Positions 5,881 through 62,900 are shown, counted from the stretch's first letter. The stretch is DNA of 64,000 nucleotides from Watersipora subatra (GCF_963576615.1 NC_088716.1:43559910-43623909), one strand, 5' to 3'. Made by a program: numbers and translations. The notes: generated from the letters alone by a model not told the origin.

Positions 5881-5904
5881 TAGATAATAAATGAAGCGAC
5901 CCAC

Positions 5905-6066: not shown

Positions 6067-6570
6067 CTGCACAACAGACAGGGATAGCAATAGCATTGAT
6101 TTGGAATGGCACCAGGCTAAAACAAGACTACAACCAAAGAATTTAGGATCGACAGAAATTTTTTTTACAATAATTAGATGATTTTACTGCTTCTAACTCA
6201 TTTTCGCAGCGGTAACTTTCATTTCATGAAACTGATAGAATGACAAAAGAATGTATCTAGTTGATGGTGTGAATGTGCCATGTTTGAAGTCTGGCATACA
6301 AATATTTGAATCCCATTGTTCTGATAACAAATTTGATTTTCCAAACAACCAGGTTGAATTTTAAAACACCCTATTTAAGTACTTTAGTATATTAGACAAA
6401 GAGGGAGACAATCGTAACATGTTGCATGCGCTTACTATACAGTCAACCATAATTATAATATACTAATAGGAGAGGTAGGTTTAGCTAATTGGCCAATTTA
6501 ACCAATTGACCTATTTATATCTATTATCTATATATATATAGATTTGAGAAATACACTATATCTACATATA

Positions 6571-7153
6571 CAGTGCCGTCAGAAATTATGAGACCACCTC
6601 ACATTTTAAGAGACAATTGGTGGTAGCAATGATTTACTGACTTAGTTTTACAAAAACTATCATAAACCATATACCATTAGATGCGGAATTTTCTACTGAT
6701 TAATATGAAGCAAATTTCCATCACATAACAATCCATACTTATTTTTTATCTCAATCGAAAGGCATATGCAACTGACATGAATAAAAAAACGAAAAGATAT
6801 TTTCGTTTTTTTATTCATTTTATTATTTTATTCATTTTTTATTTTTTATGCCAAACTATTTGACTTTGTGAGATTACAGAATGCACAACACATAGTGATG
6901 ACATCACGTTTTACCACTAACAAGCTATGTGGTCGGACACTGAAGAGATAACTTGATGACACTAATTCTATCACCAATGCTGTAAAAGAAGAATGAAAGA
7001 CTCCTGATTTACTTTACTAGAACAAGGAGAAAATTCTGCATCTAATGATGTACAATATGTGGCAAATGAATGAATTAATATGGTGCCAGCAGAGGTGCAA
7101 AGTTGAACAAAGGCGAGAATTATTGGGTGGTCTCATAATTTCTGACAGCACTG
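6571..7153. mobile_element. Tc1/mariner-like MITE (about 583 bp) with 28-bp TIRs starting CAGTG and flanking TA target-site duplications
   Basis: 5' TA|CAGTGCCGTCAGAAATTATGAGACCACC and 3' GGTGGTCTCATAATTTCTGACAGCACTG|TA. The TIRs begin CAGTG as in Tc1. No transposase ORF is present. Confidence 0.75.
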
Positions 7154-8214: not shown

Positions 8215-9690
8215 GTTTAAGATGCACTCTCATGTTAGCAAATGTTAGCAGATTTTATCGGAAAGTGTCGGTATTTTTCTATCATTTGTGATTGTTTTTT
8301 TATGCTTGTGTTGATCTGACTGATACGATATTTCCAGATTACAATTGACACAACTTGATCGCGGTTACATGCTCAGATCAAGAAAGTGTGATTATGACTT
8401 CTATAGTTGCAAAGAGACCGACAGATTAGAAAGGTGTCACGCTGCAACTTGGCCAATAGATCAATAGATCAATAGCAACTAGCGACGTCATTTCGCTTGT
8501 ATTTTTCTTCTGAGCAGTTTAGCCACTAGAAATTCCACTGTCATACAGCCCATGACCAAAGTGATATTGGAAAAAAAGAAAGTGTACTGATGGTTGAGAA
8601 ATGCAATATTAGCAGTGCAATAGGATAACTGCAATGGTAGCTGCAATGTACTGGGTGTGGGTGTTATTATATACAACAAACAGCAATAATGAAAGGAAAA
8701 GATTATATGTTTATATCTCTCCCCTGCAATAGGAGAAGTGCAATATTGGCCAATAATAGAAGTAAAACGCACTGATATTATTAGAATAACCAATATTATT
8801 TATATAGTAATAATAAAAAACTAATGCACAATTTTGTTTACATTTCAAAACGGCATAGCTAACAATATCACGAAGTTGTGATGTTTATATAGATTTTTAG
8901 AAAATCTGTACTACGTAGTCATTGTTCTGTAGTCATCCAAACTTATAATTAATTATTGTAATAATCTCATAAAAACCGTTAGAAAAAATATCATCGTCAT
9001 TTCCTTTACTTACACTGCGTTGGACATCAGTTAGAATACTAAAGTACTCAAAAGTGTCTAAAAATGTCAGTTACTTTGAATTCGGCAAAAATGAAACGAT
9101 TTCAGTACTCCTACGTTAATTACAAAAACCTTCGGCAATTTGACAATGCTATTATAGACTGGTGAAATGTGCATGTTATTTTTTCGTAAAATGCGCACAA
9201 CTTAATCGTTCTATTCTCTGTCGCTCGGCGTTTTAATTTCCGGTCTTGACTTTGATAAAAGTGAGGCTTAGCAAGTTTTAATAACGATTTTCGGCCAAAC
9301 AAATCTGTCTATTTATGTATAATCCGATCAGATGGGTTAGTTTTAGGAATTTGCGGTAACTTTTCAAAGGCTTGGTAACATATTGAAATAGGTTTACATG
9401 CGTTTTGTATCATTATTATACTTGAACGACTTTACTGAAAAATAGTTAAATTTGTTGATAAGATTTCGTTACAAGGGTTTGGTGACGGCCGATAACGGAT
9501 AATTTTCGGGAGTTGTGTGCACATGTGCATTTATCATAAATCTCCCAAACTAATCGCTTCGCTCGTGTTTGGTCGTGGGATGATAAAGTTTTGTTAATTT
9601 TAATCTAGAAACATCCTGACAGTCAGATCACCTCAAACATTAAAAACAATCACAAAAGATGAAAAATACTGATCCTTTATGATACAATCT
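8215..9690. mobile_element. Pair of inverted arms of about 125 bp (8215-8340 reverse, 9560-9690 forward) sharing the MITE3 internal module, about 1.2 kb apart
   Basis: The 9590-9690 motif ...TTTTAATCTAGAAACATCCTGACAGTCAGATCACCTCAAACATTAAAAACAATCACAAAAGATGAAAAATACTGATC and its reverse complement at 8215-8340. The same module occurs in MITE3 at 2990-3130 and 31900-32000. Confidence 0.5.
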
Positions 9691-9715
9691 ATTAAAATGT
9701 TGTACAAGTTCATCT

Positions 9716-10670
9716 TTAGGAACCCAAAGACTATCTTTAGGAATAACCCAAAGACTATCTTTAGGAACCCAAAGACTATCTTTAGGAACCCAAAGACTAT
9801 CTTTAGGAATAACCCAAAGACTATCTTTAGGAATAACCCAAAGACTATCTTTAGGAACCCAAAGACTATCTTTAGGAACCCAAAGACTATCTTTAGGAAT
9901 AACCCAAAGACTATCTTTAGGAACCCAAAGACTATCTTTAGGAACCCAAAGACTATCTTTAGGAATAACCCAAAGACTATCTTTAGGAATAACCCAAAGA
10001 CTATCTTTAGGAACCCAAAGACTATCTTTAGGAACCCAAAGACTATCTTTAGGAATAACCCAAAGACTATCTTTAGGAACCCAAAGACTATCTTTAGGAA
10101 CCCAAAGACTATCTTTAGGAACCCAAAGACTATCTTTAGGAACCCAAAGACTATCTTTAGGAACCCAAAGACTATCTTTAGGAATAACCCAAAGACTATC
10201 TTTAGGAACCCAAAGACTATCTTTAGGAATAACCCAAAGACTATCTTTAGGAATAACCCAAAGACTATCTTTAGGAATAACCCAAAGACTATCTTTAGGA
10301 ACCCAAAGACTATCTTTAGGAATAACCCAAAGACTATCTTTAGGAACCCAAAGACTATCTTTAGGAATAACCCAAAGACTATCTTTAGGAATAACCCAAA
10401 GACTATCTTTAGGAATAACCCAAAGACTATCTTTAGGAATAACCCAAAGACTATCTTTAGGAATAACCCAAAGACTATCTTTAGGAATAACCCAAAGACT
10501 ATCTTTAGGAATAACCCAAAGACTATCTTTAGGAATAACCCAAAGACTATCTTTAGGAATAACCCAAAGACTATCTTTAGGAATAACCCAAAGACTATCT
10601 TTAGGAATAACCCAAAGACTATCTTTAGGAATAACCCAAAGACTATCTTTAGGAATAACGCAAAGACTAA
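9716..10670. repeat. Minisatellite of about 40 units with two alternating unit lengths: 23 bp (CCAAAGACTATCTTTAGGAAC) and 26 bp (with a TAA insertion)
   Basis: Direct repetition is visible. It lies about 45 bp downstream (in gene orientation) of the donor of the exon at 10717-10887. The ORF-track ORF 9679-10773 is an artefact of this array. Confidence 0.95.
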
Positions 10671-10716
10671 GGGACCATCAAGATTGCTAAGGAAACAAAT
10701 AAACCAACATGCCTAC

Positions 10717-10887
10717 CATAAAGCAATTCGAAGCAAAGCCATAGACAACAATCCGATTGCCATTGAACACTGAAGGAATAGAGGCTGGTGCCTGAAGTGG
10801 TGCAGGCATATCCGTGTTCTGCTCCTGCCATATTACCTTAACCTGAGATAGCAAGGGTTCCCCTGCCTTCTCAACAACCTCTTTGAT
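10717..10887 (-). CDS. PARP4: PARP4-like exon (post-VWA)
   Basis: Acceptor ttcttatag| and donor ATG|gtaggc. Translation IKEVVEKAGEPLLSQVKVIWQEQNTDMPAPLQAPASIPSVFNGNRIVVYGFASNCFM matches PARP4 ...VKWQQLNPDAPEALQAPAQVPSLFRNDRLLVYGFIPHCTQ. Confidence 0.8.
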
Positions 10888-11459: not shown

Positions 11460-12246
11460 GTATAGCTTGTGATACGAGTGTACCGACGTGCGATAGATTA
11501 GACATATAAGGGAAACTACGGGCAAATTTCTGCCTTGAGATATAGAAGACAAATATGGACAAATTTGAGACATGAGACAACAAGACAGTTCCCGAGGCAG
11601 CTGCTAAGTGGTCGAGCATGCAAGAAGCAGCTTACAAGAGCAGCATCGCTCGGTATTTCTCGTCAGATTAAAAAATATTTACAAAGGCTGGCTAAAAGTG
11701 ATGGTGAGAGCAAGTCTTAAAGCGAGGTAAAAAGAGTCAAGCAAGAAAAAAAATTTTAAAATAAAAACGATAAAAAATATTTAAGCTTTGTGTATGATTG
11801 AAACTTATTTCTAAGTGTTTGCATAGTAAGCCAAATTCATTTAAATTAAATTTAAAGTTTATGATATGTTACGTTGTGTCACAAAAGTATATAGCGTACC
11901 AAATGTGTTGCCGTCAAGACTCTCTCACACCATCGTTATCAGTTACTGTCTGTTACAAATGTAAGAACTCCATACAGTACTGTACATAGCGATGTCACAT
12001 TATATTGCAGATCACAACCACTAGATAAGTATTTGTTACTTTGTGAGAAAATGTGGTGAATTAGAATAATTAAAAACATATTTGTCCATTGTAATATCCT
12101 ATTTTGGTGTTTTTTCAGAAGGTGGGAACAGATTTTTTTTTTTTAAATTATTTTATATTAAAAAAGTTGGTTTGGGATGCGAGTGAATTGACATACAAGC
12201 TCAGTCCCGGAACACACTAAACTCGTATGTCAAGGCATTACTGCAC
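11460..12246 (+). mobile_element. MITE family 1, copy B (5' end degraded)
   Basis: Colinear homology with copy A. The 3' end GACATACAAGCTCAGTCCCGGAACACACTAAACTCGTATGTCAAGGCATTACTGCAC. The start is approximate. Confidence 0.7.
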
Positions 12247-13075
12247 TAAACAGCATATCCAGAGAGTTCAATTGATGAAAAAAATTGTTATTGTTTTTTT
12301 AAATGTAAGTTATTTTACTTTGCAACTTCTTACATTAAGCTATATGAGCAATGTATTGAATGGCACAGCAGAGCCCCACAAAGATATGGGAATGAGATAG
12401 TTTTCACGAGGTGATGGTACATGGAAAATCCAAAGATGCATTAGCTGGTCAACTTACGGTCGAAACATAGCCAACAATAAATAGCGTGGTGACTATACTG
12501 TTGAAATACTCGGGACTATTTCACTGAAAAGCACTGACATTAAAGGCTATTGCTGTCCTAATTACAGAGCCAATCTACCAATTTTTTTTATTAAAAAATA
12601 CACATTCTATAGAAATTTATTTGCGGTCTGTTGGGGCAGTGTGCTCCAAATTTAGCAAATTTCAGTATAAATATGGGCAACTGCTTTATGTAATAGTTAT
12701 TTCTGTTTTAGCTATAGATGACCTGTGACAGCATTGAGATCAAATTTTTACCAAAAAAAGTTCGTAAAAATCACTGCTTTTATGTTTGATCGTCATGAGC
12801 AGACAACTAATTGCTTGTCCTTCCATAAACAAAAGCAACAAAAACTGAAAGAATCTTTATTGTAATTTCATTCAAGTCTAGAACCATGCAATTCTGTAGA
12901 GAATATGCAGCAATAGTTCATGTATATCAATCGCCCAAGTTCTTCAATACACCAACTGTATCTGCACAATGACAGGCCAGTCTTTCAACACACTGATTTA
13001 GTTCCAGATATCGAACCTCTGACATGCCATCATCTCATAGAGACTAAGTTAATATGAGCTCAGATCCCACACTAC

Positions 13076-14845: not shown

Positions 14846-15032
14846 TTGATCCAAAGGCAATCAAGTTGAAGGAGGAGGACTTGCTAAGAGCGGAAAGTAG
14901 AACAAGAGTGACCTTTTTGGCAGCAGAAAGTTCATCAGCAGACATGGAATTGCTCAAGTCAAGCATGATTATCATCTCGTAGTTGGCTTGAGTCGCGCAG
15001 TCAAACTCCGGATAGAAAGTCAGCATGCATGC
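14846..15032 (-). CDS. PARP4: PARP4-like exon: VWA domain start (MIDAS motif DxSxS)
   Basis: Acceptor cacttttag| and donor A|gtgagt. Translation ACMLTFYPEFDCATQANYEMIIMLDLSNSMSADELSAAKKVTLVLLSALSKSSSFNLIAFGS resembles PARP4 EACMLVFQPD...VIICLDCSSSM...NIIQFGT. Confidence 0.85.
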
Positions 15033-20724: not shown

Positions 20725-21282
20725 ATGAGAATATTGTAGTTAGCTTTAAAACGTTGCTTTCTTTTCCCCGCCGCACTTGTAAGACAAAATTACTTACGCA
20801 TAGCGTCATTTCTGTTATACTGTATTCAAGTTCCATGGCATTCTAGTTGGCCGTGACAGATCGTCAGATGTGTCGCATAACAGAGAGAATAAGTAGCTGT
20901 GCAATTATTTTAGAAATACTTAAAGGCGGTCGATTGGTTCAGGTGTTACAACGCCGGTCTATCAATCTAAATGTCACGAGTTGCAGTATCGTCAATCCTA
21001 ACCTTGCCCCCTAGACACAGATACAGGTACAAGCAAGGTACAAACAGGTACAACCCGCTCTTATTATAGTTAAAAAAAATTTTGTTTTACGTTATTGTAG
21101 ACGCATAAAATTTTTGTTATTAGGTTTTCTTTGCAGAGTAGACCTTGCGGTCTAGAAAAAATAAACAAATCATAGTGAATTGACGTCAAAAATGTACTTA
21201 GCTTATTGTAAAATTACCGTAATCATGGTCCATAAAACGAGTGAAAGTGATAAGAAAAGAAGAAAAGTTGGAGATTCAAACC

Positions 21283-21690
21283 AATAATACTGCAGTTATG
21301 GTACAGCCCACAAACCAATAATACTGCAGTTATGGTACAGCCCACAAACCAATAATACTGCAGTTATGGTACAGCCCACAAACCAATAATACTGCAGTTA
21401 TGGTACAGCCCACAAACCAATAATACTGCAGTTATGGTACAGCCCACAAACCAATAATACTGCAGTTATGGTACAGCCCACAAACCAATAATACTGCAGT
21501 TATGGTACAGCCCACAAACCAATAATACTGCAGTTATGGTACAGCCCACAAACCAATAATACTGCAGTTATGGTACAGCCCACAAACCAATAATACTGCA
21601 GTTATGGTACAGCCCACAAACCAATAATACTGCAGGTATGGTACAGCCCACAAACCAATAATACTGCAGTTATGGTACAGCCCACAAAGT
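21283..21690. repeat. 40-bp tandem repeat, 10 copies (CAAACCAATAATACTGCAGTTATGGTACAGCCCACAAAC)
   Basis: Near-perfect direct repetition. Confidence 0.95.
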
Positions 21691-25344: not shown

Positions 25345-26102
25345 CAACAACATATACATTGATATATCCAACATATATATTATTATACCCAACATATATT
25401 GACATGTCCTATATACAGTAGATGCTCTTACTGCGTAGATAATTTGTTCCGGGAATGTTTATGTTATAGGGATTTTATGTTATATGAACAGTAAAATATA
25501 TTTAAATTGCCTAATCCGCTCAAAGATCGCCTCTTTTGCCCTTAAAAAAATCGACATAACTTTTTAATTTAATGACCGTACAGTAGCTGTGGTATTATTG
25601 GTTTATATCGACAAGTTTTCTCTTCTTTTTTATTACTTTCACTCGGTTTAGAGTCCGGTTTAGGGATTACGGTAATTCTTTGACAAGGTAAAGAGAGTGC
25701 ATGCCTTCAACATCAATTTAAATTGATTTTTTTACTTTTTCAGACAGCAAGGTCTATTCTGCAAAGAAACAGTTATTGGAAATGTTGTATGTCTAAAATA
25801 GAGTAAAATAAAAATGTCTTTACTATAATAACAGCGGTGTCTGTCTGTCTGTCAATCTATCCGTCACCAGGGTTCAATGTTATGATAAAAAATAACTTTC
25901 AACGAGACATTCAGTTTGATAAACGGACACTCTGTGACACATGTATCAATCGACCACTTCAAAGGATTCCTGGATAATTATGCGGCTAATTTTTCTATGT
26001 TTTATAGGCACACTAGCTGCATTACCCGTCTACAGGAATAGATTCACGCGCAGCATAAGGTTTATTGAGATTTGTCTTTCATACTGTAAAACAACTCCAA
26101 AT

Positions 26103-26745
26103 ATGCAGTTACATCTCCCTCTCTCCATCTCTCCCTCTTTCCCCTCTCTCCCTCTCTCCCCTCTCTCTCTCCCTCCCTCTTTCTCTCCCTCTCTCTCTCC
26201 CTTCCCCCCTCTCCTCCTCGCTCTCCTTCTCTCTCTCCTTCTCTCCCTCTTTCCCCTCTCTCCCTCTCTCCGTCTCTCCCCTCTCTCTCTCCCTCCCTCT
26301 TCCCCCTCTCCCTCTCTCTCTCCCCCTCTCTCTCCCTCTTTCCGTCTCTCCCTTCTCTCTCTCTCTCTCCCCCCCTCTCCTCCTCGCTTTCCCTCTCTCT
26401 CTCCTTCTCTCCCTCTCTCCGTCTCTCTCCCTCTCTTCCCTCTCTCTCTCCCTCTTCTCCCTCTTTCTCTTCCTCTCTCTCCCTCTCTCTCTCCCCCCCC
26501 CCTCTCCTCCTCGCTCTCCCTCTCTCTCTCCTTCTCTCCGTCTCTCCCTCTCTCCCCTCTCTCTCCCTCCCTCCCTCTTCCCCCTCTCTCTCCCTCTTTC
26601 TCTCCCTCTCTCTCTCCCCCCTCTCCTCCTCGCTCTCTCTCCCCTTCTCTCCCTCCCCCCCTCTCTCTCTCCCCCCTCTCCTCCTCGCTCTCCCTCTCTC
26701 TCTCTCTCCCTTTCTCTCCCTCTCTCTCTCCCTTAGTTCAACGCG
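26103..26745. repeat. Polypyrimidine (CT-rich; CTCTCCCTCTC...) tract of about 640 bp
   Basis: Visible composition. The ORF-track ORFs 25941-26766 (both strands) are artefacts. Confidence 0.95.
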
Positions 26746-27519
26746 ACACATGCGGATAGACAACATTTTTGGTTTTTCTGTCGGGCGTATGAAGAAACAG
26801 TTTTTGGCGTGTGCCTACTTTTGAGCAGGCGACGTATAGCTGGTCATGGCTGATAGAGAACAGCGTTTTTCTACTGGTTGCAAAAAACAAATGTTCACAT
26901 GACCTTTCCGGTACACGTTGACAGTAAATATTAATTAGATGTAATTTACTACTCATTAATTTATTTAAAGAGTAGTAAATTTTATTTAATTCACTACTAA
27001 TATTTACTACTAATTTAATTTTACTACTTACTCATTTAATTAAGTTTGCTTCGTACGATCGAATCTGTTACAATCTTGCCACAATCAATACTCATAGAGG
27101 ATCTATTCTTCAGCCCTGAACCCTTGTATATAGTACATATCAATCAATTTATCTTTGTATAAGCTATCCTGCATTACTTATTTGAAGTCATCCTCTCATG
27201 TAAATTTTCTTTTAACTTTTACACAAATAATCTCAAACTAAATATGAATTGTTCACTACTATCTTGCATTCAGGATTCTTCTACAGTTTCCGTTCTATTG
27301 GATAATATGCCTGCAAATAGAGGCTTTTTGTTATTTTGTTATCAGCAAAATAAAACATTACTAACTAACGATCGAAAAAAAGACCGCCATATAATTTATT
27401 TATATTGCTCATATTTGGGAGTTATCGGTGACTCAATATATCGAGAAGACAACTCGTACTATTAGCATGTCAGTATTTATCGTCTATCCCTACGATGAAT
27501 AGCGGGTTACGTATTATAA

Positions 27520-31455: not shown

Positions 31456-32402
31456 TACAGTCAAACATGGATAACTCGCCCTCGGATAGCTCGAACACAT
31501 GGTTAACTCGAACGGTTTCTTTGGTCCGTTCCCACGTAATGATAAATTGCTTTAGATAACTCGACCTCAACTCTGTTAATTCGAACAGTTTTTTGCCCAA
31601 TGGCTACCGAGACGGTTCTTTATCGCTTTAGAAAATCACTTTATTCCAAGCCATAGAGGTAAACCTCAACTTTTCGTAATTCATAGGCGTCGTTATTACC
31701 ACCCTCAGCAAAGTAATTTTTGTCAACGACTTTTCTTAAGGTTTGGCGAAATTTGATTTTTACCAAACATCCGCTTAGGAATCGCTCTTCGGAAGCAAGG
31801 AAAAGTGAGGTAATCTTTGCATAAACTTCAAGAAAAATCGGCAAAATTGATCGTGGGTAAAACGCTCAAAAGAAAAAGATGTCTTTTCTTTTGAGCATTT
31901 CAACAACGATCAAGTTTTGCCAATGTCAATCTAAAAAACGTCCTGGCAATAACATCACCTTAAACAACAAACCAATCTCAAGTGATAGAAAAATCTCTAT
32001 ACTTTTTGATAAAAACGTTTTATCAAAAAGATAGTGGGTAAAACGCTCAAAAGAAAAAGATGTCTTTTCTTTTGAGCATTTCAACAACGATCAAGTTTTG
32101 CCAATTTTAATCTAAAAAATGTCCTGGCAATAACATCACCTCGAACAACAAACCAATCTCAAGTGATAGAAAAATCTCTATAGTTTTTGATAAAAAGTTT
32201 TAAACTTTACATTAGAAGCATTTAATTTGAAACAAGACATTTATGCTTTTGATTTATATTATAGTTTGTATATGTACATGTATCTACTAATAAATAAATA
32301 AATACATGGACTTGTGACAGTGCTCTGATAACTTGAACGCTCTAATAACTCGAACACTTTCGCTCGGTCCCGTGAAGTTCAAGTTATCCATGTTTGACTG
32401 TA
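31456..32402 (+). mobile_element. MITE family 3, copy II, with an internal tandem duplication of about 180 bp (31850-32030 and 32030-32200)
   Basis: 5' TACAGTCAAACATGGATAACTCGCCCTCGG and 3' ...CCATGTTTGACTGTA. Colinear with copy I. Confidence 0.8.
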
Positions 32403-32994
32403 TCTCACTTGTTACCTCTTTAGCTATGAAAAGCCATTATAACAGCTCACCTTAGAACTTAAAATAAAACTCAATATTATATAAAAAAAAACATAAAGTA
32501 TATAAAACCATTTATAAGAGCCTAAAAGCATAATATCAGCAGGTCATAACGCAGCCTTAATATATAAAAACGTTGATCCCGAATCACAGATCTAACATAT
32601 CCACCTAGGATTTTGCCACAATAAAGATATGTGTATTGTGTTATCATTTTGTCCAAAAAAACCAGTGTCCTTTGTACTCAGAATGCACAACAAAATATGC
32701 CAGTTTCCAAAACTCTTTTTTCGGTTTAGAATGGTTGAAAAGAAAAATTGTAAACAGCTTTCTGCTTTTCGTATTTTTGCTAGTGAAATTCATCAACAAT
32801 GGGCCTCAAATGTTTTTGATAGCTATATTTCTATATCAGAGAATGGTGGTCTGTTTTGGCCAATGTGTGAGAATGAAAGCATTTTTCTTTTTCACCCAAT
32901 TTCACTAAACTAAAAGAAATACTAAACATGGCTTTTGTTTGTCAGATGCATTGAGGCTTGTAAAGAATTATCTGCTGATTTTAAAAAGCTTTAG

Positions 32995-36743: not shown

Positions 36744-37565
36744 TACAGTCATACCTCGACATACGAGTGTACTACAGTCATACCTCGACATACGAGTGCC
36801 CAAAATATGGGAAAATCGAGATACGGACAAAATTCCAAGCATATTTATGGCTTAAGGTACAAGAACCCTTTGACATATGAGCATACAAGACAGTTCTCGA
36901 TGGCCACTAAACGGCTAAGCATGCGAGAGGTCAAAAGGTCAAGCATGCGAGAGGTCAGTTTGAGAACAGCATTGCTCGGCCTTTCTCATTGACTCAGTTT
37001 AAAAAAGTTTTAAACATGTCGGCTAAAAGTAATAGTGAACGTGAGGCAAAAAGCACCAAGCGAGAACAGATGGTAAAAAATTAACACGAAGACAAAATGA
37101 AAGTTAAGAACAAGATTAAACCTCAGCTTTATGTGTGTGTTTTTAGTGAGCTGAAATCATTTAAGCTAAATTCCAATTTATGTTATGTTACGTAGCGTCA
37201 CAAAATTCTAGTGTACCAAACGCATTGCTGTCAAGTATCTCACACCGCCGTTAGCCAGTACATCTGTCTCGAAGGTAAGAACTTTGAACAGAGCGTAAGT
37301 AGTACTGTTACATTTCACTACATAATTATCCTAACCACTAAATAGGTATTTGTTACTTTGTGAGTGTAGCTACTGAATTCAACAAATCAAAACACGTTTT
37401 GCCATAATTGTATCCTGTGTTTGGGTGATTTTTCAATAGTATGGGAACGGATTAACTTGTATTTAGTCATTTTATATAGGAAATATTGCATTGAGATACC
37501 AGATCATGGACATACGCCCTCAGTGGCAAAACGCATTAAGCTCTTATGTTGAGGTATGACTGTAC
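36744..37565 (+). mobile_element. MITE family 1, copy C (5' TIR duplicated 2x)
   Basis: Starts TACAGTCATACCTCGACATACGAGTG TAC TACAGTCATACCTCGACATACGAGTG and ends ...GAGGTATGACTGTAC. The internal blocks are shared with copies A and B. Confidence 0.8.
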
Positions 37566-38127
37566 TTTCTCAGTATTCTTTGGTCCTGCGTTATATTAAA
37601 AACGTGTCCTATTATAAGTTCTCTATGTATACATAGATTAATAAACCAAAAGACAACTATGCAAATATAAAAATAATCATCACAGCAGACACCAATAAAA
37701 GTAACCTACTATATAAAATTCGATGGCCATATTGTGCGCATGCTCTAACAACTCGGGAACAAATATGATCATAAGACATCGTATCCAAATCTGAGCTGTG
37801 GCTCTCAGGCTAAGATGCTAACACGGAGCTATAGAGTAGTCAGTGAATGGCACATATAATGTGGGTAGAAGCTCGTAACAGAGCTGCATCGAATAAAAAA
37901 GTTAAGTTGCAAGTGGGGGCGCCATGGATCGGGTGTTTGTAGGTTCAATACCTATACACCGCAAGGCTTTTTCCTACATTATCGTGCATATGTAAGCTGT
38001 AGACAATATGGCTATCAAAACGATAACACGCAAATGAGACATGTGACAATACAGTGAATGATGTTGCGAGATGCCATCATAAAAAGCCTGAGATACGACA
38101 AATAAGCTAAAGTAAGCTAAGAAATAC

Positions 38128-52200: not shown

Positions 52201-54029
52201 ATCATTGAGTTTGTCACCAGTAAGTCTTTTTGTACCACTCACACCAGTCTCTGTAAAACTTGATAAGATATAAAAGCGCTCTTTATTATTATTCGCGCAC
52301 CATAAAAGCAAACCGGATGAAGATGAACTGCATACATGCATGTACAAATTTGCACAACTTTGTGTGCCACAGGTTGAAAAATATGCCTATTCATTTTCTC
52401 TTGCATTTCGAGAAAGATATTTGCACAAACTTTGCATCATATGTCAGCAAATCTGCAAGTTGAGATGCCCGCAATTCGGAGTTTGATGGTTTATATCAGA
52501 CTGACTAGTATGATGACTCTGATTCAACCATCGATAATGCTAGTGGAATCTGTAACAGGGCCAACAGATAACAAATAATGGTTATAGTGAACTAATAATG
52601 TGCTGTTTTACAAAGAGACATTAATCTGTTTTCATTTACTTTGATTAACCGGTGTAGTCAATCTCGATTCACAGCAATCAACGTAAGTATGACCAAAAAG
52701 AGATGGGCCATAATAATTGTTATAAACTTTATGCACACATAACTAACTTTTTATTACTATAACTCCTGCCAAAACCAAAGGTGGTTCCGCCACGCCCTGT
52801 CTGCCCAAATGCTGCCTATTTGTCATTTTTACCATTTTTTACGTGATACTGCATTGTGTACACTTGAAAAGTGAGCCGTTTTTATATTTTAGAGCAGCCG
52901 AAAATGAGAGATTCTGCGTGTATTTTTTCAAGGTTGCCATGAGCAATAGTAATAACTAAGCAGCAGTGATGATTTAAGAAATAATGTAATAGCATTGTAA
53001 TAATCACATTGTTCGGTGTTAAAAAATGCACATTGTATAAGAGACTCAAACAATACATCCCAGAGAATTATGCTCTAAAGCAATTATAGACCCATAATAT
53101 ATATTGGTAAGAATGGTTTTTCTGGCAAAAATAATGCATTGTCAATATCAAAAAAATCTTTAGTTGAGTGCCTGGTCAATTACAGGTTACAACAAAAATA
53201 ATCCCAGTTTCCCATTGGCTTACGCCACTGCTTGCGTACAGGTAAGTCACACAGATATAAATACGTGTACGCGTATGAAGAAATTACCCAGATTAAAATG
53301 AATTCGTTTGTTCGAATTGGTGGCAGTGACATCTCTACTAAGTAATAAAACACGTCGAAAAGATTAATAAATAACGTGTGTAGTGTCCTACCTGATGTTT
53401 CAGATGAGGGTAAAGGGCGCTTTGCTGAGAGCTCTAAACCAGCGAGCAGTCTTGAAGATGTATTCAAGTGGGTTTGAATAAGGGGGTGCGAAGTTGTAAG
53501 AAACTTATTTGCTGGTCGACTAGCACCAATTCTACCAGGAAATTTCTCCAATAAAGAAGAGTGAGTTGAGATCATTGCGATATCAAACACTGCAAAAAGA
53601 ATTACGCATTAACAATACATCAGTGATCAGTACAACATCGGTGATCAGCATTTACCGGTTGTCAAGGATAAGCTACTCACCTGTAACCTAGTTTAGTCGA
53701 TTTATTGAGTGTATCTAAAACGGTTTTAATGATCTGCACATTTTTTTTCCACTTAATCGAATAGCTAAGGTGGCAAAGATAATTGTGGGAAAAACTTGAC
53801 ATTGTTCGTAGTTGTTTGACAAGGAACTTAGCTCTCGCCGCAAGACGATTTCTGTTAGCGCATAAATGTTTTTCTTGCAAGTGGACACGTTTCAGGTAAA
53901 GGGATTGGGACGCCCGTTCTTGGGCACACTGTTGCTAGATTGCCTGCTAAAGTTTCTAGTGTGTCAGTTTTTTTTATTTCTTGTTTTCGGTTTTATTCTC
54001 GCTGTAGTGAGGTAGTCTTCATAATTCAA

Positions 54030-55290
54030 AGTGCACTGTGATGTGTGGTTGTGGAGAAATTATGTTATGCATAACTAATCCGAATCCACACAGAACATCA
54101 GTGTTGAATTTGCTTGTCGTATTATTCTATTTTGACTATGTTTAGTTTGTGCACTTTTACTTAGCTTGTGGGTGCTAATTTGATTATTACCGGTTCAGGT
54201 ATAGTGAAGGTGTTAAGCTATTGCAAGTAATGCTGATATTTACCAGTACAAGTTACTTCTTTATGCTATAAGTCAAACAGTTAAAATAAACAACTAACAA
54301 AATTCTAAAACAATATTAATGACAAAACAAATAGAAGAGCTAATAAAAATTACATCCTTGCTCAAACGGTCGTCTGTGTTTGCTTGTCTCGGTCCATGCG
54401 GCTGCGAGTTTCGATAGTCAAATTAGAGTCGTGAGAGGTCATAGGTAGAGAGTGTCGGCAGTTGAGATAGTGGCGGAGGTAGTGGTAGAGGAGGCTCAGC
54501 TGGTGGAGGAGAAGGAGGCTCCATTGGTAGAGAAGAGAGAGAGACTCCTCAGCAGGCAGATGGGAAAGCGTCCAAGGAGGCCCTCGGGAAGAGAGAGAGA
54601 GCCAGAGCTCAGGCTAGAGCCGGAGATGGAGAGGGGAATGGAGGGAGGTGCTTAGTCATTGGAGCTGTTCTCTTTTATAGATGTCTGGCATGTGGGATGG
54701 TTAGCCTGTGGGTGTAGGTTGAGTGTTAAGGTTCGATGCTTTCTGTCAGGCATGGGAAGATCTCTTGTTTGCGTAAGTCTTCAGCTGGTGCACGTGATGT
54801 TGACATGTAGGGTGGAGCTCGTGGCTTACTCCTGGTGTCTAGGTCATGTTTGACAGGAGTGGCAGATCTGTATGTGACTCATTTAACTCGTCTTTAATGT
54901 TTCTCTGGTAGCTTCTTGATGATAGTGGTTGGTAAGTTTAATTGCTTCGACTTCCCTTTGGCATGTTTTCCATCTGGTGTTGACGCAGTTTCTATGATTG
55001 ATTTCTTCCAAACTTGTAGTTTCTAATTTGCTTTTGACATTTTCAAATTATTGAATCTTTTAATGTCTTTGGGCGTCTTGCTGCTTGTACGAATTATATG
55101 CTTATCCTGTGGTCTGGCTACATTCCCTGTTGGTATCTTGTTTTCGCAGAATTTCCATACAACAGCACTTCTGTCATAAATGAATGAGACTAGCACCAGC
55201 TTGGGTGTTGTAAATTTACTTACTATCAAGTACAGGTAGGAGGTGCAAAAAACTATTACTGGTATATATATTCAAATCTGTCCAATACAT
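54030..55290 (-). mobile_element. ORF2-lacking LINE-like unit, blocks Z-Y-A. It is paralogous to the termini of the LINE-bearing unit at 55300-55410 + 59518-62900, and it preserves the unoccupied gypsy target site at about 54133.
   Basis: Z (54030-54135) is about 80% identical to 55300-55410. Y (54135-54420) is about 80% identical to 59518-59798. A (54420-55290) is similar to 62290-62900 (for example GTCATTGGAGCTGTTCTCTTTTATAGATGTCTGGCATGTGGGATGGTTAGCCTGTG versus GTCAATGGAGCTGTTCTCTTCTATAGATGTTTCTGTTAGCCTATGAGAAGGTGG). In this copy Z and Y are contiguous. Confidence 0.6.
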
Positions 55291-55413
55291 ACACCCCAAG
55301 GCGTTGTCATGGGTGGTTTGGGAAAGATTATGTTAGCCAATATTTAATGCGAATTCACACACAACATTAGTGTTGAATGTGCTTTGTCATCTCATTCTAT
55401 TTTGACTATGCAT

Positions 55414-58400
55414 GTGATGTTATGCAACAATTAACATAGGTTTATGTTTTGGTTAAAAGCAAACTCAACAATATATTCCGGTCTTGTTAGTTTCCATTCT
55501 TTTTCAGAGCAACCCAAAACGAAACTCATAGCGAGTCAACCAAAAACTATAATAAACAACATCCGGTTTATACAAATACATAACATCTCCCTTTCTAGAA
55601 GGATTGTCAAAACAAATAGTATGTATTTAGTTAGAGTTCAGATAGTTAATATTGGCTTTGTCTTTTATCCGCTAGGATCATAGTCCTCCAAGTATAAAGG
55701 CTTCTTCTTCGACCTCTGTGGTCTACCATACCCATGGTCCAAATCAGTATGCCTGGCTACAGTGCCCTCTGCAACATCTGACTTGGACCCCCGGCACTCA
55801 CTAGGACTGGCATGTGGACTGTACCAAGTTGTCCTGCCCTCTGCGTCACCAGTGGCGTCAGGAGAGCGAGGAACTCGACTAGCTTTTGTAGTGGTCTGAC
55901 ATTGACCATGGCCTTCTGTGAAGAGTTCCTCACCCCAGTTCTGTTGTGGAGTCTTGGATTCTGGTTGTACATCTATCAAGGCACTTCTGTTGCGTCTTAT
56001 AACCCCATTTTCAGTCTGAATTGAGTAAGACCTTGGTGCTAACATTTTTATCACAGTACTTTCTCTCTGCTTATCTCTAATATATACATTGTCTCGTGAA
56101 TATAATTCTGGTAGCTCCTTGGCTCAATTCTGATCATGGACACCTTTTGCATACTGTCTCTTCTCCTTTTTAGAATCCTCAATTTGGCTTCTCGCAGTAA
56201 CTTTCTGCAGCAAGTTATCAGTAAGAGTTGGTAGTGTAGTTTGGATAAGTCTTCCCATCAAAAGTTCTAAAGGAGTATACCCATTCTCAAGGGGAGTAGC
56301 TCTATATGTCAGTAAGCTCAAATGAGGATCCGATGTTTTCCACATTCGTTTGATAGTCCCCACCGCTCTCTCCGCTTTTCCATTAGCTCTTGGGTAACAT
56401 GGAGAACTAGTCATATGTATAAATCCATAGTCTTGTACAAACTTCTGAAATTCTCCAGATGAGAATTGTGGGCCATTGTCCGATATCAGCACTTCGCCAA
56501 TGCCATGTTAGCAAACACAGATTTGAATGCCTCAATGGTGTCAATTGAGGTAATTGAAGGCAGTTTTCTAACTTCAATCCATCTGCTGTAATAGTCAACA
56601 ATAAGTAGATAGTGAGACTTCTGGAGTTCAAGCAGGTCGGCTCCAAGCCTTTCCTATGGTCTCTCAGGCAAGGTGGAGGGACACAAAGGTTCTATAGGTG
56701 TATCAGAGTTGAGTTTGCAAACATGGCAACTCTGAACCATCTCATGAATTTGTGTGAACATTCTAGGGCACCATACAGATCTCCTAGCTCTCAGTCTACA
56801 TTTTACAATGCCCTGATAAGCCTGGTAAATTCTGTCTAAGATACTTAGTCTCTCGCTGGTGGGTGCGACAATCCTGCTGTCTTACAGAAGGACTTCATTA
56901 ATCACTTTGAGATGTTCCTTTACTTCCCAGTAAGGATGTATAGCTGTGTATGCATCGGTTTTGTATGTAGGCCAGCCCTCCTGGCAACATTGAACAACCT
57001 TTCTACATATCTCGTCTTTCTCCTGAGCTAACTTCAGCACCTCTACTGCCTAGTTGGTTGGTAAGCTTTCCCTTTTGGCAATCTCCATTTCCTCAACCAA
57101 TAGAATGTCTCCACCTTTGTAAGTGTCTACGGGTGCTCTTGAAAGAGCATCCACTAGACAATGGCTTTTCCCTGGTACATATTCAACCTTGGGAGCATAA
57201 CGCATCAGTCGAAGCCACATACGCAGAATTCTAGGTGATGCCTGGTCAAGGTCTTTAGTTGTCATGATAGGGACCAGCGGTTTATGATCAGTTTCCAAGG
57301 TGAATGTCATCCCTTGAACAAACTGGTCAAATTTGTTACATGCCCATACTGCTCTTAATGCCTCTTTCTCAATGGTAGCGTACCGTTTTTCTGTGTCTGA
57401 TAGTGAGCGATAAGCATAAATAACTGGGCATGTTGTACCATCAGCCTGAATCTGATACAAAGTAGCCCCCAGTCCCACATTACTAGCGTCTGTACCTATA
57501 ATAGTAGGCAGGTTAGGACTGTAATGAGCCATCGTCTTAGACGATTCGAGCGTTTCCTTAACCTCGGTGAAAGCCCTCTCCTGGTCGGAACCCCATAACC
57601 ATTCTCGATTCTCCTCAACAACTCTCTCATAGGTGCATTGAGAGTTGCTAGTTGAGGTACAAACTTAGCCATTTGGCTCAACGTGCCATTCAATCTGCGC
57701 AACTCTGTCTTGCTGGTTGGTGCAGGATATTCTGTAATAGCAGTAACTTTAGCTTGGTCTGGCTCAACGCCATGGCTATCAATGTGTTCCAGAAAATTCA
57801 ATGAATCTTTTCTGAATTCACATTTCTTAATATTCAGTGTAAGTCCTGATGCAAGTAGTCTCTAGAACTTCATATAGCACCTTGTCATGAGTTTTAAGGT
57901 CAATCACATGTATCAGGACGTCATCTATGTGGTAAATCACTGCTGGTATTCCCTCTAAGACTTTTGACATCACTCTCTGGAATATCTCGAGAGCGCTTGC
58001 CATTCCAAATGATAGTCTATTAAATCTGTATCTACCAAAGTGTGACAAGAATGTTGTGAGTTTCTGTGATTCCTCAACCAACTTAACGTGCCAAAACCCG
58101 CTATTGGCATCTAGTTTGCTAAATATTGTACTGTCCCCAAGCTGACTCAAGCTCTCATTCACGGTAGCCATTGGATGGATCTTTCTTCATACTGCTTCGT
58201 TTAACCCAGTGAAATCTACACAGATTCTCAACCCTCCAGACAGTTTAGCGACAGTGACCAACCCACTACACCATTCCGTAGCCTCAGTTACTGGTAATAT
58301 CACACCTTGGTTGACCATCTCCTGTAACTGTGTTTTAGCTTTTTCTCGCAAAGGATGTGCAATATTTCTAGGTGTGTATATACAAGTCGGTTTGCTACCA

Positions 58401-59513
58401 TCTTTAAGAGAAATTTTATATGTATAACCTGTCAGTAAACCCAGTCCCGAAAACAATTTAGGAAACTCGTTAACAATTGGGCTAGCCTCTCAAGTTTGAA
58501 GGCTTAGCAGCTTCATTCACGTGACAAGTCACAAGTCCTAGTTTTGAGCATGCATTTCTACTGAGTAGTGAGGCTGCCTGATTCTTCAGTACATAAGCAG
58601 TCTCCACATGTATCTTTCTCTGGTAAGACATCTTAGCTTCAAAGGTTCCTAATATTTCTAACCGGTTACCTCCAGGTCCATGTAGAACAACATCAGTTTC
58701 ACATAGCTTTATATGCTTCATCCATGGCTCTGTGTCACTTACTATAGTGCCATCAGCACCTGTGTCTAAATTGAACAATGTTTCATGTCCATTTATCCCA
58801 ACCCGTGCATTCCAACGATCCACCTCTCCAATAGTTAGTCCACCAGTAAACAGGAAGTCGTCCTCACTCTCGGCGACCTCTCTCTCTCTCTGATATCACT
58901 TCCTGTACCTGCCTAGACCTGCATTGTCTAGCACAGTGACCAATCTTTTTGCAATTTCTGCACTCTACAGCTCTAGCTAGACATTGTGACAGTGAGTGCG
59001 GTTCTCTGCCACATATACTGCATACTCTATCGATTGGAGAGCTTTGTGTAGCCTTTTTAAAGCCTTATAGCCTTGTAGCCTTATATCAACAAAGCTTGTT
59101 GATACTCAGCAATTTCTCCATTTAACCTAGTTAACACCCTAAAGCATTCCGTCTGCTCTTGAATGTTTTAAAGTTTGATTCACGATCACCACTCAATACT
59201 AGCTCGGCAGGTGGATCTACCCTGGGAATAGGTCTAGCATTATTTACAGTATTTTGTATTACAACTGGTTTTTGAGGCCCTTCTGCTGGCTCTACTGAAT
59301 CAACCATTGTTACATTTATCTGTAAACCACCGCTGCCACCATGTGATGTTATGCAACAATTAACAAAGGTTTATGTTTTGGTTAAAAGCAAACTCAACAA
59401 TATATTTTGGTCTTGTTAGTTTCCATGCTTTTTCAGAACAACCCAAAACGAAACTCAGAGTGAGTCAACCAAAAACTATAATGAACATCATCCGGTTTAT
59501 ACAAATACATAAC
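55414..59513 (-). mobile_element. Compact Ty3/gypsy LTR retrotransposon (about 4.1 kb). It has 180-bp LTRs (TG...CA), a primer-binding site, a polypurine tract and a 5-bp target-site duplication ATG(C/T)A. The gag is short with one CCHC knuckle. The pol PR-RT-RNaseH-IN is frameshifted.
   Basis: LTRs at 55414-55593 and 59338-59513 are about 90% identical. In element orientation the 5' LTR ends ...CATCACA and is followed by TGGTGGCAGCGGTGG, a candidate primer-binding site. The purine run GAAAGGGAGA immediately precedes the 3' LTR start TGTTATGTATTTG. Flanks are gactATGCA[element]ATGTAtagtttg, and the paralogous empty site at 54128 reads gactATGTTtagtttg. Pol motifs: DTGADGT (PR, 58482-58823), YHIDDVLIH and FGRYRFNRLSFGMASA (RT, 57827-58456), TDASNVGLGATLYQ (RNase H, 57050-57532), an integrase core ending CYPRANGKAE (56124-56492), and a gag C..C..GH..C knuckle at about 58890-58990. 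Confidence 0.85.
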
Positions 59514-59517
59514 AATG

Positions 59518-59890
59518 TATAGTTTGTGAACTTATGCTAGTTTGTGGAAACTAATTGGATTATTACTGGGTCAAGTACGTACCAGTGAATGCGTTAGGCT
59601 GTTGTAAACAATACCGATATTTGCCAGTAAAAGTTACTTTTTTATTTTATAAGTCTAACAATTAAAATACACAACTAACGAAATGCTAAACAATAATATT
59701 AATGAAAAATGTTAAAATAGCCAATAAAAGTTCACTTTTACTCGAGCAGTCGTCAGTGTTCGCTTGTTTAGTCCCATACGGTTGCGAGTCTTGACAGTCT
59801 TTTACCTCAGACTATTACCTCAGACGAGGTAGAACTTCCTAGCGATTTAATTTAAATCTAAAGGAACGCCTCTATTTATTGGGTTTGTTT
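59518..59890 (-). repeat. Block Y plus an about 90-bp spacer, the putative 3' UTR/tail of the LINE at 60177-62264
   Basis: Contiguous with the LINE RT C-terminus on the minus strand. Homologous to Y at 54135-54420. Confidence 0.5.
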
Positions 59891-60176
59891 TGAGTCGGGG
59901 TATAATTTGGAGAGCAGCACACTGCTGCTTAGGATTGAGTTTTGGTTGTGAGACCTCTGATGTCTCGAATTGTTCGAGGCAAAAAGCTATTGTTGTAGAT
60001 ATTTTTGTTTGTTGTTACAGAGTTAAGTTCTCCCCTGGAGGCTCTTGTTGTTATTGTCATATTTTCTCTGTCTTGGTTGGCTTCAGAGAGGGAATGGTGT
60101 TTTTCTTCATTCTGAAGAATTCTAATGAGCAGACAGAGTCGGTGGCTTTTTCGCCTGTCTTCCAGTGATTTTATAC

Positions 60177-62264
60177 CTAGCTGGTTTCTTGCTTCCGAAA
60201 CACTTTCCCACGCCCTCTCATGTTACTTATGAACCGTATAGCATCATTCTGTACTAGCTCTATGCATTGGATTGTGTTTTTATTGGTTGGGTCCCAGACA
60301 GCATCTGCATATTCTAGAATTGGTCTACATAGACTTGTGTATGCGAGCAGTTTATCCTCCTTTGTGGCGCTATACATCAGATGTTTAATGCCCCCCAGTA
60401 TCTTCCTTGATTTACTACATTTGCTCTTTATGTGTTGATCGAATTTTAGATCTGACTGGATGATCACACCTAGATATTTTGTGTCCTCTGTCCAGACAAG
60501 AGGTAAGTTTCCTAGGTTATACGTAAACTGCTGGCTCATTGTACCAAAGCATATTGCTTGGCACTTTTTCTCATTGAATGGCATTTTCCATTTTTTTGAC
60601 CAGTTGTACACTTCCTTAATGTTATTTTGGAATATTTGGCATCCCCTGAACTATTAACTTCTTGGTAAATTAGTGTGCCATCAGCGTAAAGGCTAACATT
60701 GCAGAATAAACTCTCAGGTAGATTGTTAATGTAGCATAGGAAAAGGTAGGTCCCAGTACCAAGCCCTGTGGGACTCCAGATGTTACAGCACATTTCTGAG
60801 AACTATTTCTGTTGGGTACTACAGATTGTTCCCTGTCAGATAGGAAGTCGTGGATCCAGTTAATGAGTTGTGTGTTTATCCCTGGTATGCTTTGTAGTTT
60901 TTCAAGGAGCAGTAGATGTGGAACATTGTCAAAAGCCCTTTTGAAATCCATGATGATGGTGTGAGTGGTATGGCCATCGTCTGCTGCTTTTGCCAGTCCG
61001 TTGTATGTGGCACAGAGCTGAGTTTGACAGGACACTCCCCTCATAAAGCCATGTTGTCGGTAATGAAGTACGTCATCAAGTGTCTTGTTTAGATAATGCA
61101 ACACTATGTGTTCCATCATTTTACAGGGTATGCTTGTGAGTGATATTGGCCTGTATTTATTAGGTAACTCTGGGTCTCCCCCTTTATGTACAGGGGTTAC
61201 ATTGACATATTTCCACTGTTCAGGAAGTTTTCCAGATTTTAGAGAAGCTTTGTAAATCAGTGCTAGTGCTTTCGCAGTGGTTGGCAGGTCTATTAGCCTG
61301 TCAGGTTTCCTAATTCCATCAGATCCTGGTGATTTTCCATTTGGCAAGTCGCATATGAGTTTCGCCACTCTATCAGTTGTTATGTTTAGACTGTCATCAT
61401 CACTCTCTATCCGTTTAAAATCCTTGGCTAAATAACCATCTTGGAACTGGCTGTGGAAGAAAATGTTCAGTAGTTCAGCACAGTGCTCAGGGTTTTCTGT
61501 GAGGATATTCTGACCATCCCTAAGTGTTTTCTGGCTAGATATTTTGTTCTTGTCTGCACCAAGGAGTTTGAAGAAGAGCTTTGAGTTTCCTTTTTTAGTG
61601 GTTGATATATTCTATTTGTATAATATGCTTTTCAAATAGCGTCTAGCCCCTTTTTAGTTTCTCCTCGTGTTTGTTTGAATTTTCCTTAGACCTTATATAT
61701 GCATTTCTTTGCATATATCGAAGTTTTAGTGCCCGCTTGCTGAACCAATCTGGTGTAGATGGGTGTCCTCCTTATTGGTACATACTGCTCATTACTTCTG
61801 GTTAGATTTTTAGTAAAGATATCCCACTTTAGCTCAGGGTCAGTCAATTGAGCAAGTTCTTCATTTGTGTTTTGCATATCTATTTGAAATGTTTCCTCGT
61901 CTGCTTTCTTGTACTGTTTGATAGTGTGTGGTCTAGGGAAAGCAGATATGATTTCTTCTTGAAGATACACAGTGATAAAAGAGTGATCACTTAGTCCTGG
62001 TGCTACAACTTCAGTATCAAGAATGTAGGTTTGGTGATTGGTACACACTAAATCTAGAGTATTACCTAGTACATGTGTAGGACCAGTTATTAATTGTTTT
62101 ATCCCGTTGCTGTGTAACACATCAAGAAAGGCTTGCTGCACTCTTTTGAATGGAGCTGATATTTTGACCTTCTCTTTTGTCCAGTAAATACCTGGAAAGT
62201 TCATATCCCCAACAAATAGTATATTGTGTCCCTGGAACTCTCTTTCTATCCCAAAACAAGTCAC
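60177..62264 (-). mobile_element. Non-LTR retrotransposon (LINE) ORF2: the C-terminal part of the APE endonuclease plus reverse transcriptase. It is 5'-truncated or degenerate and interrupted by a frameshift or stop.
   Basis: Minus-strand ORFs. 61686-62264 carries ...GDMNFPGIYW...LSDHSFITV (the APE endonuclease SDH motif). 60670-61368 carries RT motifs YRPISLTSIPCKMMEHIV, HGFMRGVSCQTQL, IIMDFKRAFDNVPH, SGVPQGLVLGPTFS. 60177-60611 carries the RT C-terminus KKCQAICFG...YLGVIIQSDLKF...CRPILEYADAVWDP. Confidence 0.85.
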
Positions 62265-62289
62265 ACAAGAGTCATGACAGTCCTTAGGC

Positions 62290-62900
62290 AGAAGAGCTCA
62301 GCAGTTGAAATAAGAGTTTTGGCAGTGAAGGCAAAAAGGTTTTGCAGACGGAGGAAAAGAGAGCTTAACAGGTGATGAGGGAAGAGGCTCCACAGGCAGA
62401 AGGAAAGAGAGGCTCAACAGGTAGGGGTAAGCTTCAGCAGGCAGAAGAAAAAGAGAGAGCCGTATCGGGTCCTTAGGAAAGAGAAGCTGAGTCAATGGAG
62501 CTGTTCTCTTCTATAGATGTTTCTGTTAGCCTATGAGAAGGTGGTTAGGCGTGCATGTTGAACAATTGAGCGGACTTGTTTTAAGTACGTCATGGGAATT
62601 TACTGATTGAAGATTATGACTAACTCCAATTGTTTTGTTTGGGTCTGGTAGAGGTCTAATTTTTTTAATGGTTTTCTGGCACATCAATTCATGTCTTATG
62701 GCTTACTTTCACTGAAGGTTTCTAATCCACTTGTAGATGGGCATATGATGACTGTCTTTCCTGATGATCCTCTTATGTACTAGGTGTTTTCGTTCATTGT
62801 AACATTATGTATCTGTCCGGTGGTTTAGGCGTTTTTCCATTATGCTATCAGTTTTTGCAAATACTTCCATACAACATACATACATGCATGGACATAAAAT
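62290..62900 (-). repeat. Block A-prime, the putative 5' region of the LINE; homologous to block A at 54420-55290
   Basis: The sequence similarity is described under 54030-55290. No convincing ORF1 was found. Confidence 0.45.

Follow-up and report, generated by a model that had tools for sequence, protein, structure and literature searches.

Among the clades of Ty3/gypsy retrotransposons in molluscs, the C-clade is the most abundant, and it is also common in both annelids and echinoderms (PMC6238403, PMC8220671); proteins annotated as 'K02A2.6-like' have been tied in the literature to Steamer-like elements (SLEs) and the C-clade. Steamer has long terminal repeats (LTRs) of 177 bp that are followed directly by a 12-nucleotide primer-binding site (PBS) for tRNA-Leu; the LTR ends read TGTAACA...(A/T)TAAACA and the PBS reads TGGTGTCAGAAG (PMC8905726). 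In Mytilus chilensis, the element MchSLE1 measures 4758 bp and has a single open reading frame (ORF) of 1376 amino acids, LTRs of 185 bp and two zinc fingers (PMC11046912), and two CCHC arrays are usual in nucleocapsids of the Mag lineage (PMC2577118). Here we describe a Ty3/gypsy element of similar architecture in a 64,000-nucleotide stretch of DNA from Watersipora subatra, hereafter the window, in which all positions are counted from its first letter as 1. This element is very probably a decayed copy with a deletion in gag that inserted into one of two old paralogous sequences.

The element occupies 4102 bp (55413-59514) on the minus strand. An earlier note on this DNA had recognized the element and placed it at 55414-59513, limits that each fall one base too far inside. 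All of the coding potential is on the minus strand, and therefore the right-hand LTR is the 5′ LTR. Several of the features below are defined by alignment to P0001, a protein encoded by one of the relatives described further on.

55413-55585, minus strand: 3′ LTR, 173 bp with TG...CA ends, from the repeat alignment
55586-55596, minus strand: polypurine tract (PPT) AGAAAGGGAGA, immediately upstream of the 3′ LTR, read from the sequence
55665-59307, minus strand: degenerate single gag-pol frame, from Pfam, tblastn and frameshift-aware alignment to P0001
58921-59022, minus strand: nucleocapsid with two CX2CX4HX4C zinc knuckles, from translation and alignment to P0001
59022-59084, minus strand: junction of an internal gag deletion, from tblastn and alignment to P0001
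59327-59341, minus strand: PBS TGGTGGCAGCGGTGG, from the sequence and its match to published tRNA-Leu(AAG) probes
59342-59514, minus strand: 5′ LTR, 173 bp, from the repeat alignment

The LTRs form a pair of direct repeats (blastn E about 1e-73 to 1e-75) that align without gaps and show nine differences in 173 positions, corresponding to 94.8% identity and a raw divergence of 5.2%. With five transitions and four transversions, the Kimura 2-parameter (K2P) distance is 0.054. Thus the LTR alignment proposed previously holds up on measurement, but the description of the repeats as near-identical and 180 bp long does not. Each LTR runs from TGTTATG to CATCACA, that is, TG...CA with imperfect 7-bp terminal inverted repeats. 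The PBS (minus strand, 59341-59327) lies directly inside the 5′ LTR, and the PPT, which is the reverse complement of 55586-55596, lies directly inside the 3′ LTR. The 5-bp flanks, ATGCA on the left (55408-55412) and ATGTA on the right (59515-59519), match at four of five positions. A PBS starting with TGG, a PPT and these same flanks had been named in the earlier note, and all are read directly from the sequence. The element therefore carries the parts that define an LTR retrotransposon: TG...CA direct repeats bounded by a short target-site duplication (TSD), a PBS by the 5′ LTR and a PPT by the 3′ LTR.

The coding content is that of a Ty3/gypsy element, as had been proposed. Scanned with Pfam, the translation stitched together from the minus strand yields matches to RVT_1 (2.7e-20), RT_RNaseH_2 (5e-28), RT_RNaseH (7e-27), Integrase_H2C2 (1e-8) and rve (4e-12), along with a weak match to the RVP protease (0.009) that is under the Pfam cut-off. 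The single frame holds the gag N-terminus, two CCHC knuckles, protease (PR, with DTGA), reverse transcriptase (RT, with YHIDD), RNase H (RH) and integrase (INT, with HHCC and DDE), and the pol domains follow one another along the minus strand in the order PR-RT-RH-INT, which is the Ty3/gypsy (Metaviridae) arrangement. Integrase is downstream of RNase H, and so the copia order, with integrase upstream of RT, is not seen. Pfam finds none of the BEL/Pao domains (Peptidase_A17, DUF1759-type) in the element and no chromodomain in the integrase and C-terminal tail, and consequently nothing marks it as a chromovirus. Upstream of the protease, the zinc-knuckle arrays read CSICGREPHSLSQC and CRNCKKIGHCARQC, making two where a single knuckle had been reported.

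The sequences that surround the element belong to two paralogues in the same orientation, one of which is interrupted twice, by the gypsy element and by a non-LTR retrotransposon of the long interspersed nuclear element (LINE) type. The parts were delimited by blastn, by MAFFT alignment and by Tandem Repeats Finder (TRF).

54037-54700, plus strand: paralogue A, uninterrupted at both insertion points (blastn, MAFFT, TRF)
55305-55412, plus strand: left part of paralogue B (block Z), ending in the left gypsy TSD ATGCA at 55408-55412 (blastn)
59515-59799, plus strand: middle part of paralogue B (block Y), with the right gypsy TSD ATGTA at its start and the left LINE TSD (59786-59799) at its end (blastn)
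59800-62268, minus strand: 5′-truncated, decayed LINE (Pfam, sequence, alignments)
62283-62530, plus strand: right part of paralogue B, where similarity to paralogue A (54420-54700) is regained after the LINE (blastn, TRF)

Paralogue A starts 1.27 kb upstream of paralogue B, and the two are 72-81% identical (about 20-28% diverged). By blastn, 55305-55410 of block Z aligns with 54037-54140 at 81% identity (E 1e-22), and block Y (59515-59799) aligns with 54138-54419 at 76% identity (E 1e-51). When 53980-54480 is aligned by MAFFT to the joined flanks of the gypsy element, the two are colinear through the junction: paralogue A reads TTTTGACT-ATGTT-TAGTTTGTG, with the single 5-mer at 54138-54142, and paralogue B reads TTTTGACT-ATGCA[element]ATGTA-TAGTTTGTG. 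The uninterrupted paralogous flank pointed out in the earlier note is therefore present, and this pairing of a filled site with an intact paralogue is real, far beyond chance. What does not survive is its description as the element's own empty target site, as evident by the fact that paralogue A is much more diverged from paralogue B than the LTRs are from each other. The empty site is a paralogue and not the allele that preceded integration. As in standard comparisons of filled and empty sites, an uninterrupted paralogue fixes the junction and the TSD, in this case for both the gypsy element and the LINE. Unlike an allelic or orthologous empty site, however, a paralogue of 72-81% identity is silent on polymorphism or recent activity. 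Because this divergence greatly exceeds that of the LTRs, the duplication, or the pair of old repeat copies, should long predate the gypsy insertion.

The second interruption of paralogue B is the LINE, for which Pfam matches RVT_1 (1.6e-23) and, in part, Exo_endo_phos_2 (the apurinic/apyrimidinic, or APE, endonuclease). Its ORF2 has the C-terminus ...SFLPRTIRDIRGL, its 3′ tail (GTCTGAGGTAAWA)x2 terminates at 59800, and it is bounded by a 14-bp TSD, GAGTC[T/A]TGACAGTC, that appears as GAGTCTTGACAGTC at 59786-59799 and as GAGTCATGACAGTC at 62269-62282. Paralogue A lacks the LINE and has a single GAGTTTCGATAGTC at 54406-54419. Thus the two insertions are 281 bp apart in paralogue B, and paralogue A is empty for both. 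We also considered whether blocks Z and Y might be the 3′ untranslated region of the LINE, and rejected this since the LINE has its own tandem tail at 59800 and its own 14-bp TSD.

Similarity between the paralogues ends at 59799 and is back at 62259-62520, which corresponds to 54416-54684 of paralogue A (best 91% over 35 bp, E 6e-9). The blastn pairs to the right of the LINE are colinear (54416-54469 with 62259-62312, 54515-54603 with 62384-62461, and 54650-54684 with 62486-62520), and this region contains homologous purine-rich minisatellites that TRF reports with a 24-bp period at 54489-54548 in paralogue A and a 25-bp period at 62356-62422 in paralogue B. The right-hand limit of paralogue A is uncertain, with weak similarity extending possibly to about 55165.

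Instead of arising by local segmental duplication, the two blocks could have inserted separately as members of an older repeat family, in which case the transposon would measure about 0.65-1.3 kb. Such an origin would suit the sharp left boundary that both share (54037 and 55305, each beginning TGT), their common orientation and internal 24-25-bp minisatellite, and the repeat-rich character of the window. However, the family would be represented by only two copies in 64 kb, which are adjacent, and no terminal repeats, terminal inverted repeats, TSD, PBS or PPT were recognized at the block ends. Rfam at gathering thresholds and a tRNA scan likewise return nothing in the window, which leaves an origin from a short interspersed nuclear element (SINE) or other tRNA-like sequence unsupported. 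We regard the older repeat family as quite possible, although somewhat doubtful. A reading of A and B as the LTRs of an older element with an 885-bp interior was rejected, as there is no adjacent PBS or PPT, the right ends are not conserved as CA, and the similarity continues past block Y when the LINE is taken out.

Protein and DNA relatives of the gypsy element were used to interpret its coding region. A protein search returned 260 proteins at E<=1e-10, the full-length ones being single ORFs of about 1300-1370 amino acids. The top matches (P0001-P0003, from ENA/Logan assemblies) are 61-64% identical, and the named matches are 'K02A2.6-like' proteins of Asterias rubens (49% identity), Acropora digitifera, Pinctada and Cordylochernes. 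For four relatives the DNA was recovered, and the sequence listed after the 5′ LTR of each begins with its PBS.

L001 (encoding P0001): circularly assembled with period 4467, about 4.62 kb; LTR about 151 bp; TGGTGGCAGCGAAAT after the 5′ LTR; TSD not visible
L003 (encoding P0004): circularly assembled with period 4445, about 4.64 kb; LTR about 193 bp; TGGTGGCAGCGGTGC after the 5′ LTR; TSD not visible
L004 (encoding P0010): 2346-6916 of a 990-kb contig, 4571 bp; LTRs 128 bp, identical; TGGTGGCAGCGGTTG after the 5′ LTR; TSD ATAAC
L005 (encoding P0009, 'K02A2.6-like'): 1785-6324 from an Asterias rubens chromosome, 4540 bp; LTRs 125 bp, 98% identical; TGGTGGCAGCGGTTA after the 5′ LTR; TSD AAAAC

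These relatives share with our element 45-64% protein identity over PR-RT-RH-INT, LTRs that begin with TGT and a G-rich PPT (that of L003, AGAAAGGGGGA, resembles AGAAAGGGAGA), and the two with genomic context, L004 and L005, also have a 5-bp TSD. They differ from it in having open ORFs, identical or near-identical LTRs, a full gag and a length of 4.54-4.64 kb, compared with 4.10 kb here. Their LTRs measure 125-193 bp and each has one gag-pol ORF of 1349-1370 amino acids; the ORF of L004 is intact at 1357 amino acids, and the existing gene model for L005 has 1126. The lineage itself is therefore compact, with full-length members of about 4.55-4.65 kb.

All four relatives also have the PBS core TGGTGGCAGCG(G), which covers 11-14 nucleotides of the PBS in the Watersipora element. 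Comparison with tRNA 3′ ends identifies the likely primer, as the complete PBS TGGTGGCAGCGGTGG is identical to the first 15 nucleotides of two independently published probes, 5′-TGGTGGCAGCGGTGGGATTCGAACCC, that are antisense to mammalian tRNA-Leu(AAG) at its 3′ end, CCA included (PMC6103689, PMC7997516). L004 and L005 are young copies of related elements, which suggests that a sublineage primed by tRNA-Leu(AAG) is active now, or was recently, in other marine animals.

Alignment to P0001 also accounts for the small gag of the Watersipora copy. Residues 2-66 of P0001 correspond to element nucleotides 235-431 and residues 263-1368 to nucleotides 493-3838, while tblastn and the frameshift-aware alignment agree that residues 67-262 have no counterpart. 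At the junction, 62 nucleotides replace about 197 codons (about 590 nucleotides) of the relatives, so that the copy lacks about 0.5-0.6 kb of gag relative to every relative. Pfam finds no capsid domain in this copy, and the Metaviridae combination of capsid and CCHC gag, which is found in the relatives, is therefore incomplete here. When the N-terminal regions of 21 relatives were aligned and then scanned individually with Pfam, PNMA matched in nine of them (best 1e-8) and Retrotrans_gag in eight (2e-5); a profile of these gag N-termini has no significant match among PDB sequences (best E 0.14). Because Retrotrans_gag and PNMA match the very stretch that is missing from the copy, this stretch is the capsid-like core of gag. 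Absence of the capsid domain is damage specific to this copy and does not exclude it from Ty3/gypsy.

The earlier note had described a gag of about 150 amino acids and offered a compact lineage as one of two explanations, and a short gag without a capsid domain might indeed be expected from an unusually compact gypsy lineage, given that the relatives are compact (4.54-4.64 kb) and that Pfam finds no gag domain in the copy. However, about 260 amino acids precede the zinc knuckles in all of the full-length relatives, among them the closest (54-61% identity). In addition, both the knuckles and the conserved 66-residue N-terminus are retained in the copy, only 62 nucleotides apart, the two sides of the junction are in different frames, and the missing portion is the Retrotrans_gag/PNMA-like region. 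A native miniature gag is therefore scarcely credible, and the gag of this copy is, on the sequence comparison, a deletion remnant.

The deletion could also be a property of more than one element. Internally deleted LTR elements mobilized in trans are common, and the gag-deleted form might be a non-autonomous subfamily that transposed with its deletion and was mobilized in trans by full-length relatives. In favour of such a subfamily, the LTRs, PBS, PPT and gag N-terminus, which between them contain the likely cis-acting signals for reverse transcription and integration, have all been kept. Only one copy is present, however, and blastn reveals no other copy or solo LTR of the family in the 64-kb window. 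This proposal, which we consider rather unlikely, differs from a deletion private to this copy in timing only and is inseparable from it here.

Damage to the remainder of the frame was located along the same homology-guided path. There are six frameshifts, at about 59145, 58896, 58472, 57862, 57615 and 56509, in line with the earlier report of a frameshifted pol, and five in-frame stops, at 58187, 57050, 56882, about 56655 and 56124, with one more near 58485 within an inserted stretch. A pol with six frameshifts and five or six stops between LTRs that are about 95% identical might indicate that the LTRs greatly understate the age of the copy and that their similarity has been maintained by gene conversion, which was one of two explanations offered earlier. 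We simulated decay by mutating the intact L001 coding sequence, minus the deleted part, at K/2 = 0.027 per site. New stops averaged 3.8 in this simulation, with probabilities of 0.33 for five or more and 0.19 for six or more, compared with the 5-6 observed. Because the internal damage fits the prediction from LTR divergence, gene conversion of the LTRs is unnecessary. Furthermore, the LTRs are not near-identical, their nine differences are spread over the whole length with no conversion tract, and the source copy may have been defective already at insertion. Gene conversion is accordingly highly improbable. The other explanation offered, a compact lineage, is upheld for the lineage as a whole, although the short gag is itself a deletion. 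From T = K/2r, the LTRs give an age of about 5-27 million years for assumed rates r of 5e-9 to 1e-9 per site per year, rates that are uncalibrated for the host.

Comparison with Steamer and MchSLE1 bears on the position of the element within Ty3/gypsy. Shared features are a single gag-pol ORF of about 1350-1380 amino acids (in the relatives of the element), an overall size of about 4.5-4.8 kb, LTRs that are short (Steamer, 177 bp; MchSLE1, 185 bp; this copy, 173 bp) and two nucleocapsid zinc fingers. As in Steamer, a tRNA-Leu PBS directly follows the 5′ LTR and a PPT precedes the 3′ LTR, and the homologues are annotated as 'K02A2.6-like', the label tied to SLEs and the C-clade in the literature. 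The architecture described for the C-clade, which combines a single gag-pol ORF and two CCHC arrays with a total length of about 4.6-5 kb, LTRs of about 180 bp and a tRNA-Leu PBS directly after the LTR, is thus found here, although these features are suggestive of the clade and not exclusive to it. MchSLE1 differs in its reported tRNA-Asn PBS, and both described elements differ from the copy here, which is dead and without the capsid-like part of gag. Membership in the Steamer family in the strict sense is ruled out by different LTR ends and a different PBS. On this comparative basis, the element is probably a member of the Mag C-clade, or Steamer-like (SURL), group.

With the anatomy, domain content, deletion, decay and paralogue colinearity in hand, we infer the integration mechanism and the order and timing of events, as well as the clade. 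Paralogue A (from 54037) and paralogue B (from 55305) would go back to an old duplication at this locus, or else to an older repeat with two copies side by side. Much later, a Ty3/gypsy element would have integrated into paralogue B at ATGYA, creating the 5-bp TSD. The route would be the standard one, in which a tRNA at the PBS primes reverse transcription, the PPT primes the plus strand and integrase carries out the insertion. Neutral decay since the insertion would then have produced the 5.4% divergence of the LTRs, the six frameshifts and the 5-6 stops. About 0.5-0.6 kb of the capsid-like gag region would have been lost before or after insertion, and paralogue B would have received the LINE, 281 bp away, in an independent event.

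Several observations weigh against parts of this account. The target-site duplicates differ by one base (ATGCA and ATGTA) and are not a perfect duplication, as is expected at such an age. The unit shared by A and B may be either a segmental duplication or an older repeat family, and a single copy of the gypsy family fits gag deletion either before or after insertion. The tRNA scan finds no tRNA gene in the window, such that the PBS was compared with mammalian tRNA-Leu(AAG) and not with that of the host. With respect to the clade, Steamer has the PBS TGGTGTCAGAAG, which corresponds to another Leu isoacceptor than the tRNA-Leu(AAG) site TGGTGGCAGCGGTGG here, and its LTR ends are TGTAACA...ATAAACA as opposed to TGTTATG...CATCACA. 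Moreover, the probable clade assignment is drawn from architecture and homologue annotation.

It is conceivable that the elements primed by tRNA-Leu(AAG) through TGGTGGCAGCG(G), namely this copy, L001, L003, L004 and L005, constitute a distinct, unnamed branch of very compact (about 4.55-4.65 kb) C-clade gypsy elements across marine phyla, or else that the copy is a capsid-less, non-autonomous derivative mobilized in trans. We hold this pair of proposals tentatively and, even taken together, consider them unlikely. The copy is an ordinary, old and dead element of a compact and widespread kind that has already been described, and it has little importance beyond annotation. For that purpose, the locus provides a clean case of two nested insertions, each delimited by means of an empty site in a paralogue, and it gives a relative order of events in which the duplication would have come long before the gypsy insertion. 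What looks like a 'miniature' gypsy element derives, by deletion, from a widespread lineage that is compact to begin with and whose architecture relates it to the Steamer-like elements known from work on transmissible cancers of bivalves and on horizontal transfer. The tRNA-Leu(AAG) primer site could mark a sublineage in repeat annotation.

Other features of the window are unconnected with this locus. A long tandem array of 33/36-bp units that are about 92-95% identical (9679-10773) has an open frame of 364 amino acids composed of (N)PKTIFR repeats; almost certainly, this array is a minisatellite rather than a gene. Another tandem repeat, with a 68-bp period and copies that are more than 99% identical (21277-21688), was probably expanded or homogenized recently. 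An AG/CT-rich low-complexity stretch at 25900-26770 gives spurious ORFs of 220-270 amino acids on both strands. Dispersed repeats include an old family, about 0.6-0.8 kb long and present three times (202-1017, 11610-12249 and 36755-37566; about 68-69% identity) and a pair at 2221-3339 and 31456-32403 that, at 89-97% identity, is much younger than most repeats of the window. The members of this pair contain palindromic segments (2953-3040 and 31837-31924) and may represent a recently active DNA transposon or miniature inverted-repeat transposable element. Finally, a probable host exon on the minus strand at about 14850-15026 carries a VWA-like motif, YEMIIMLDLSNSMS...NLIAFGS, and has only two database relatives, both fragments that are 70% identical.

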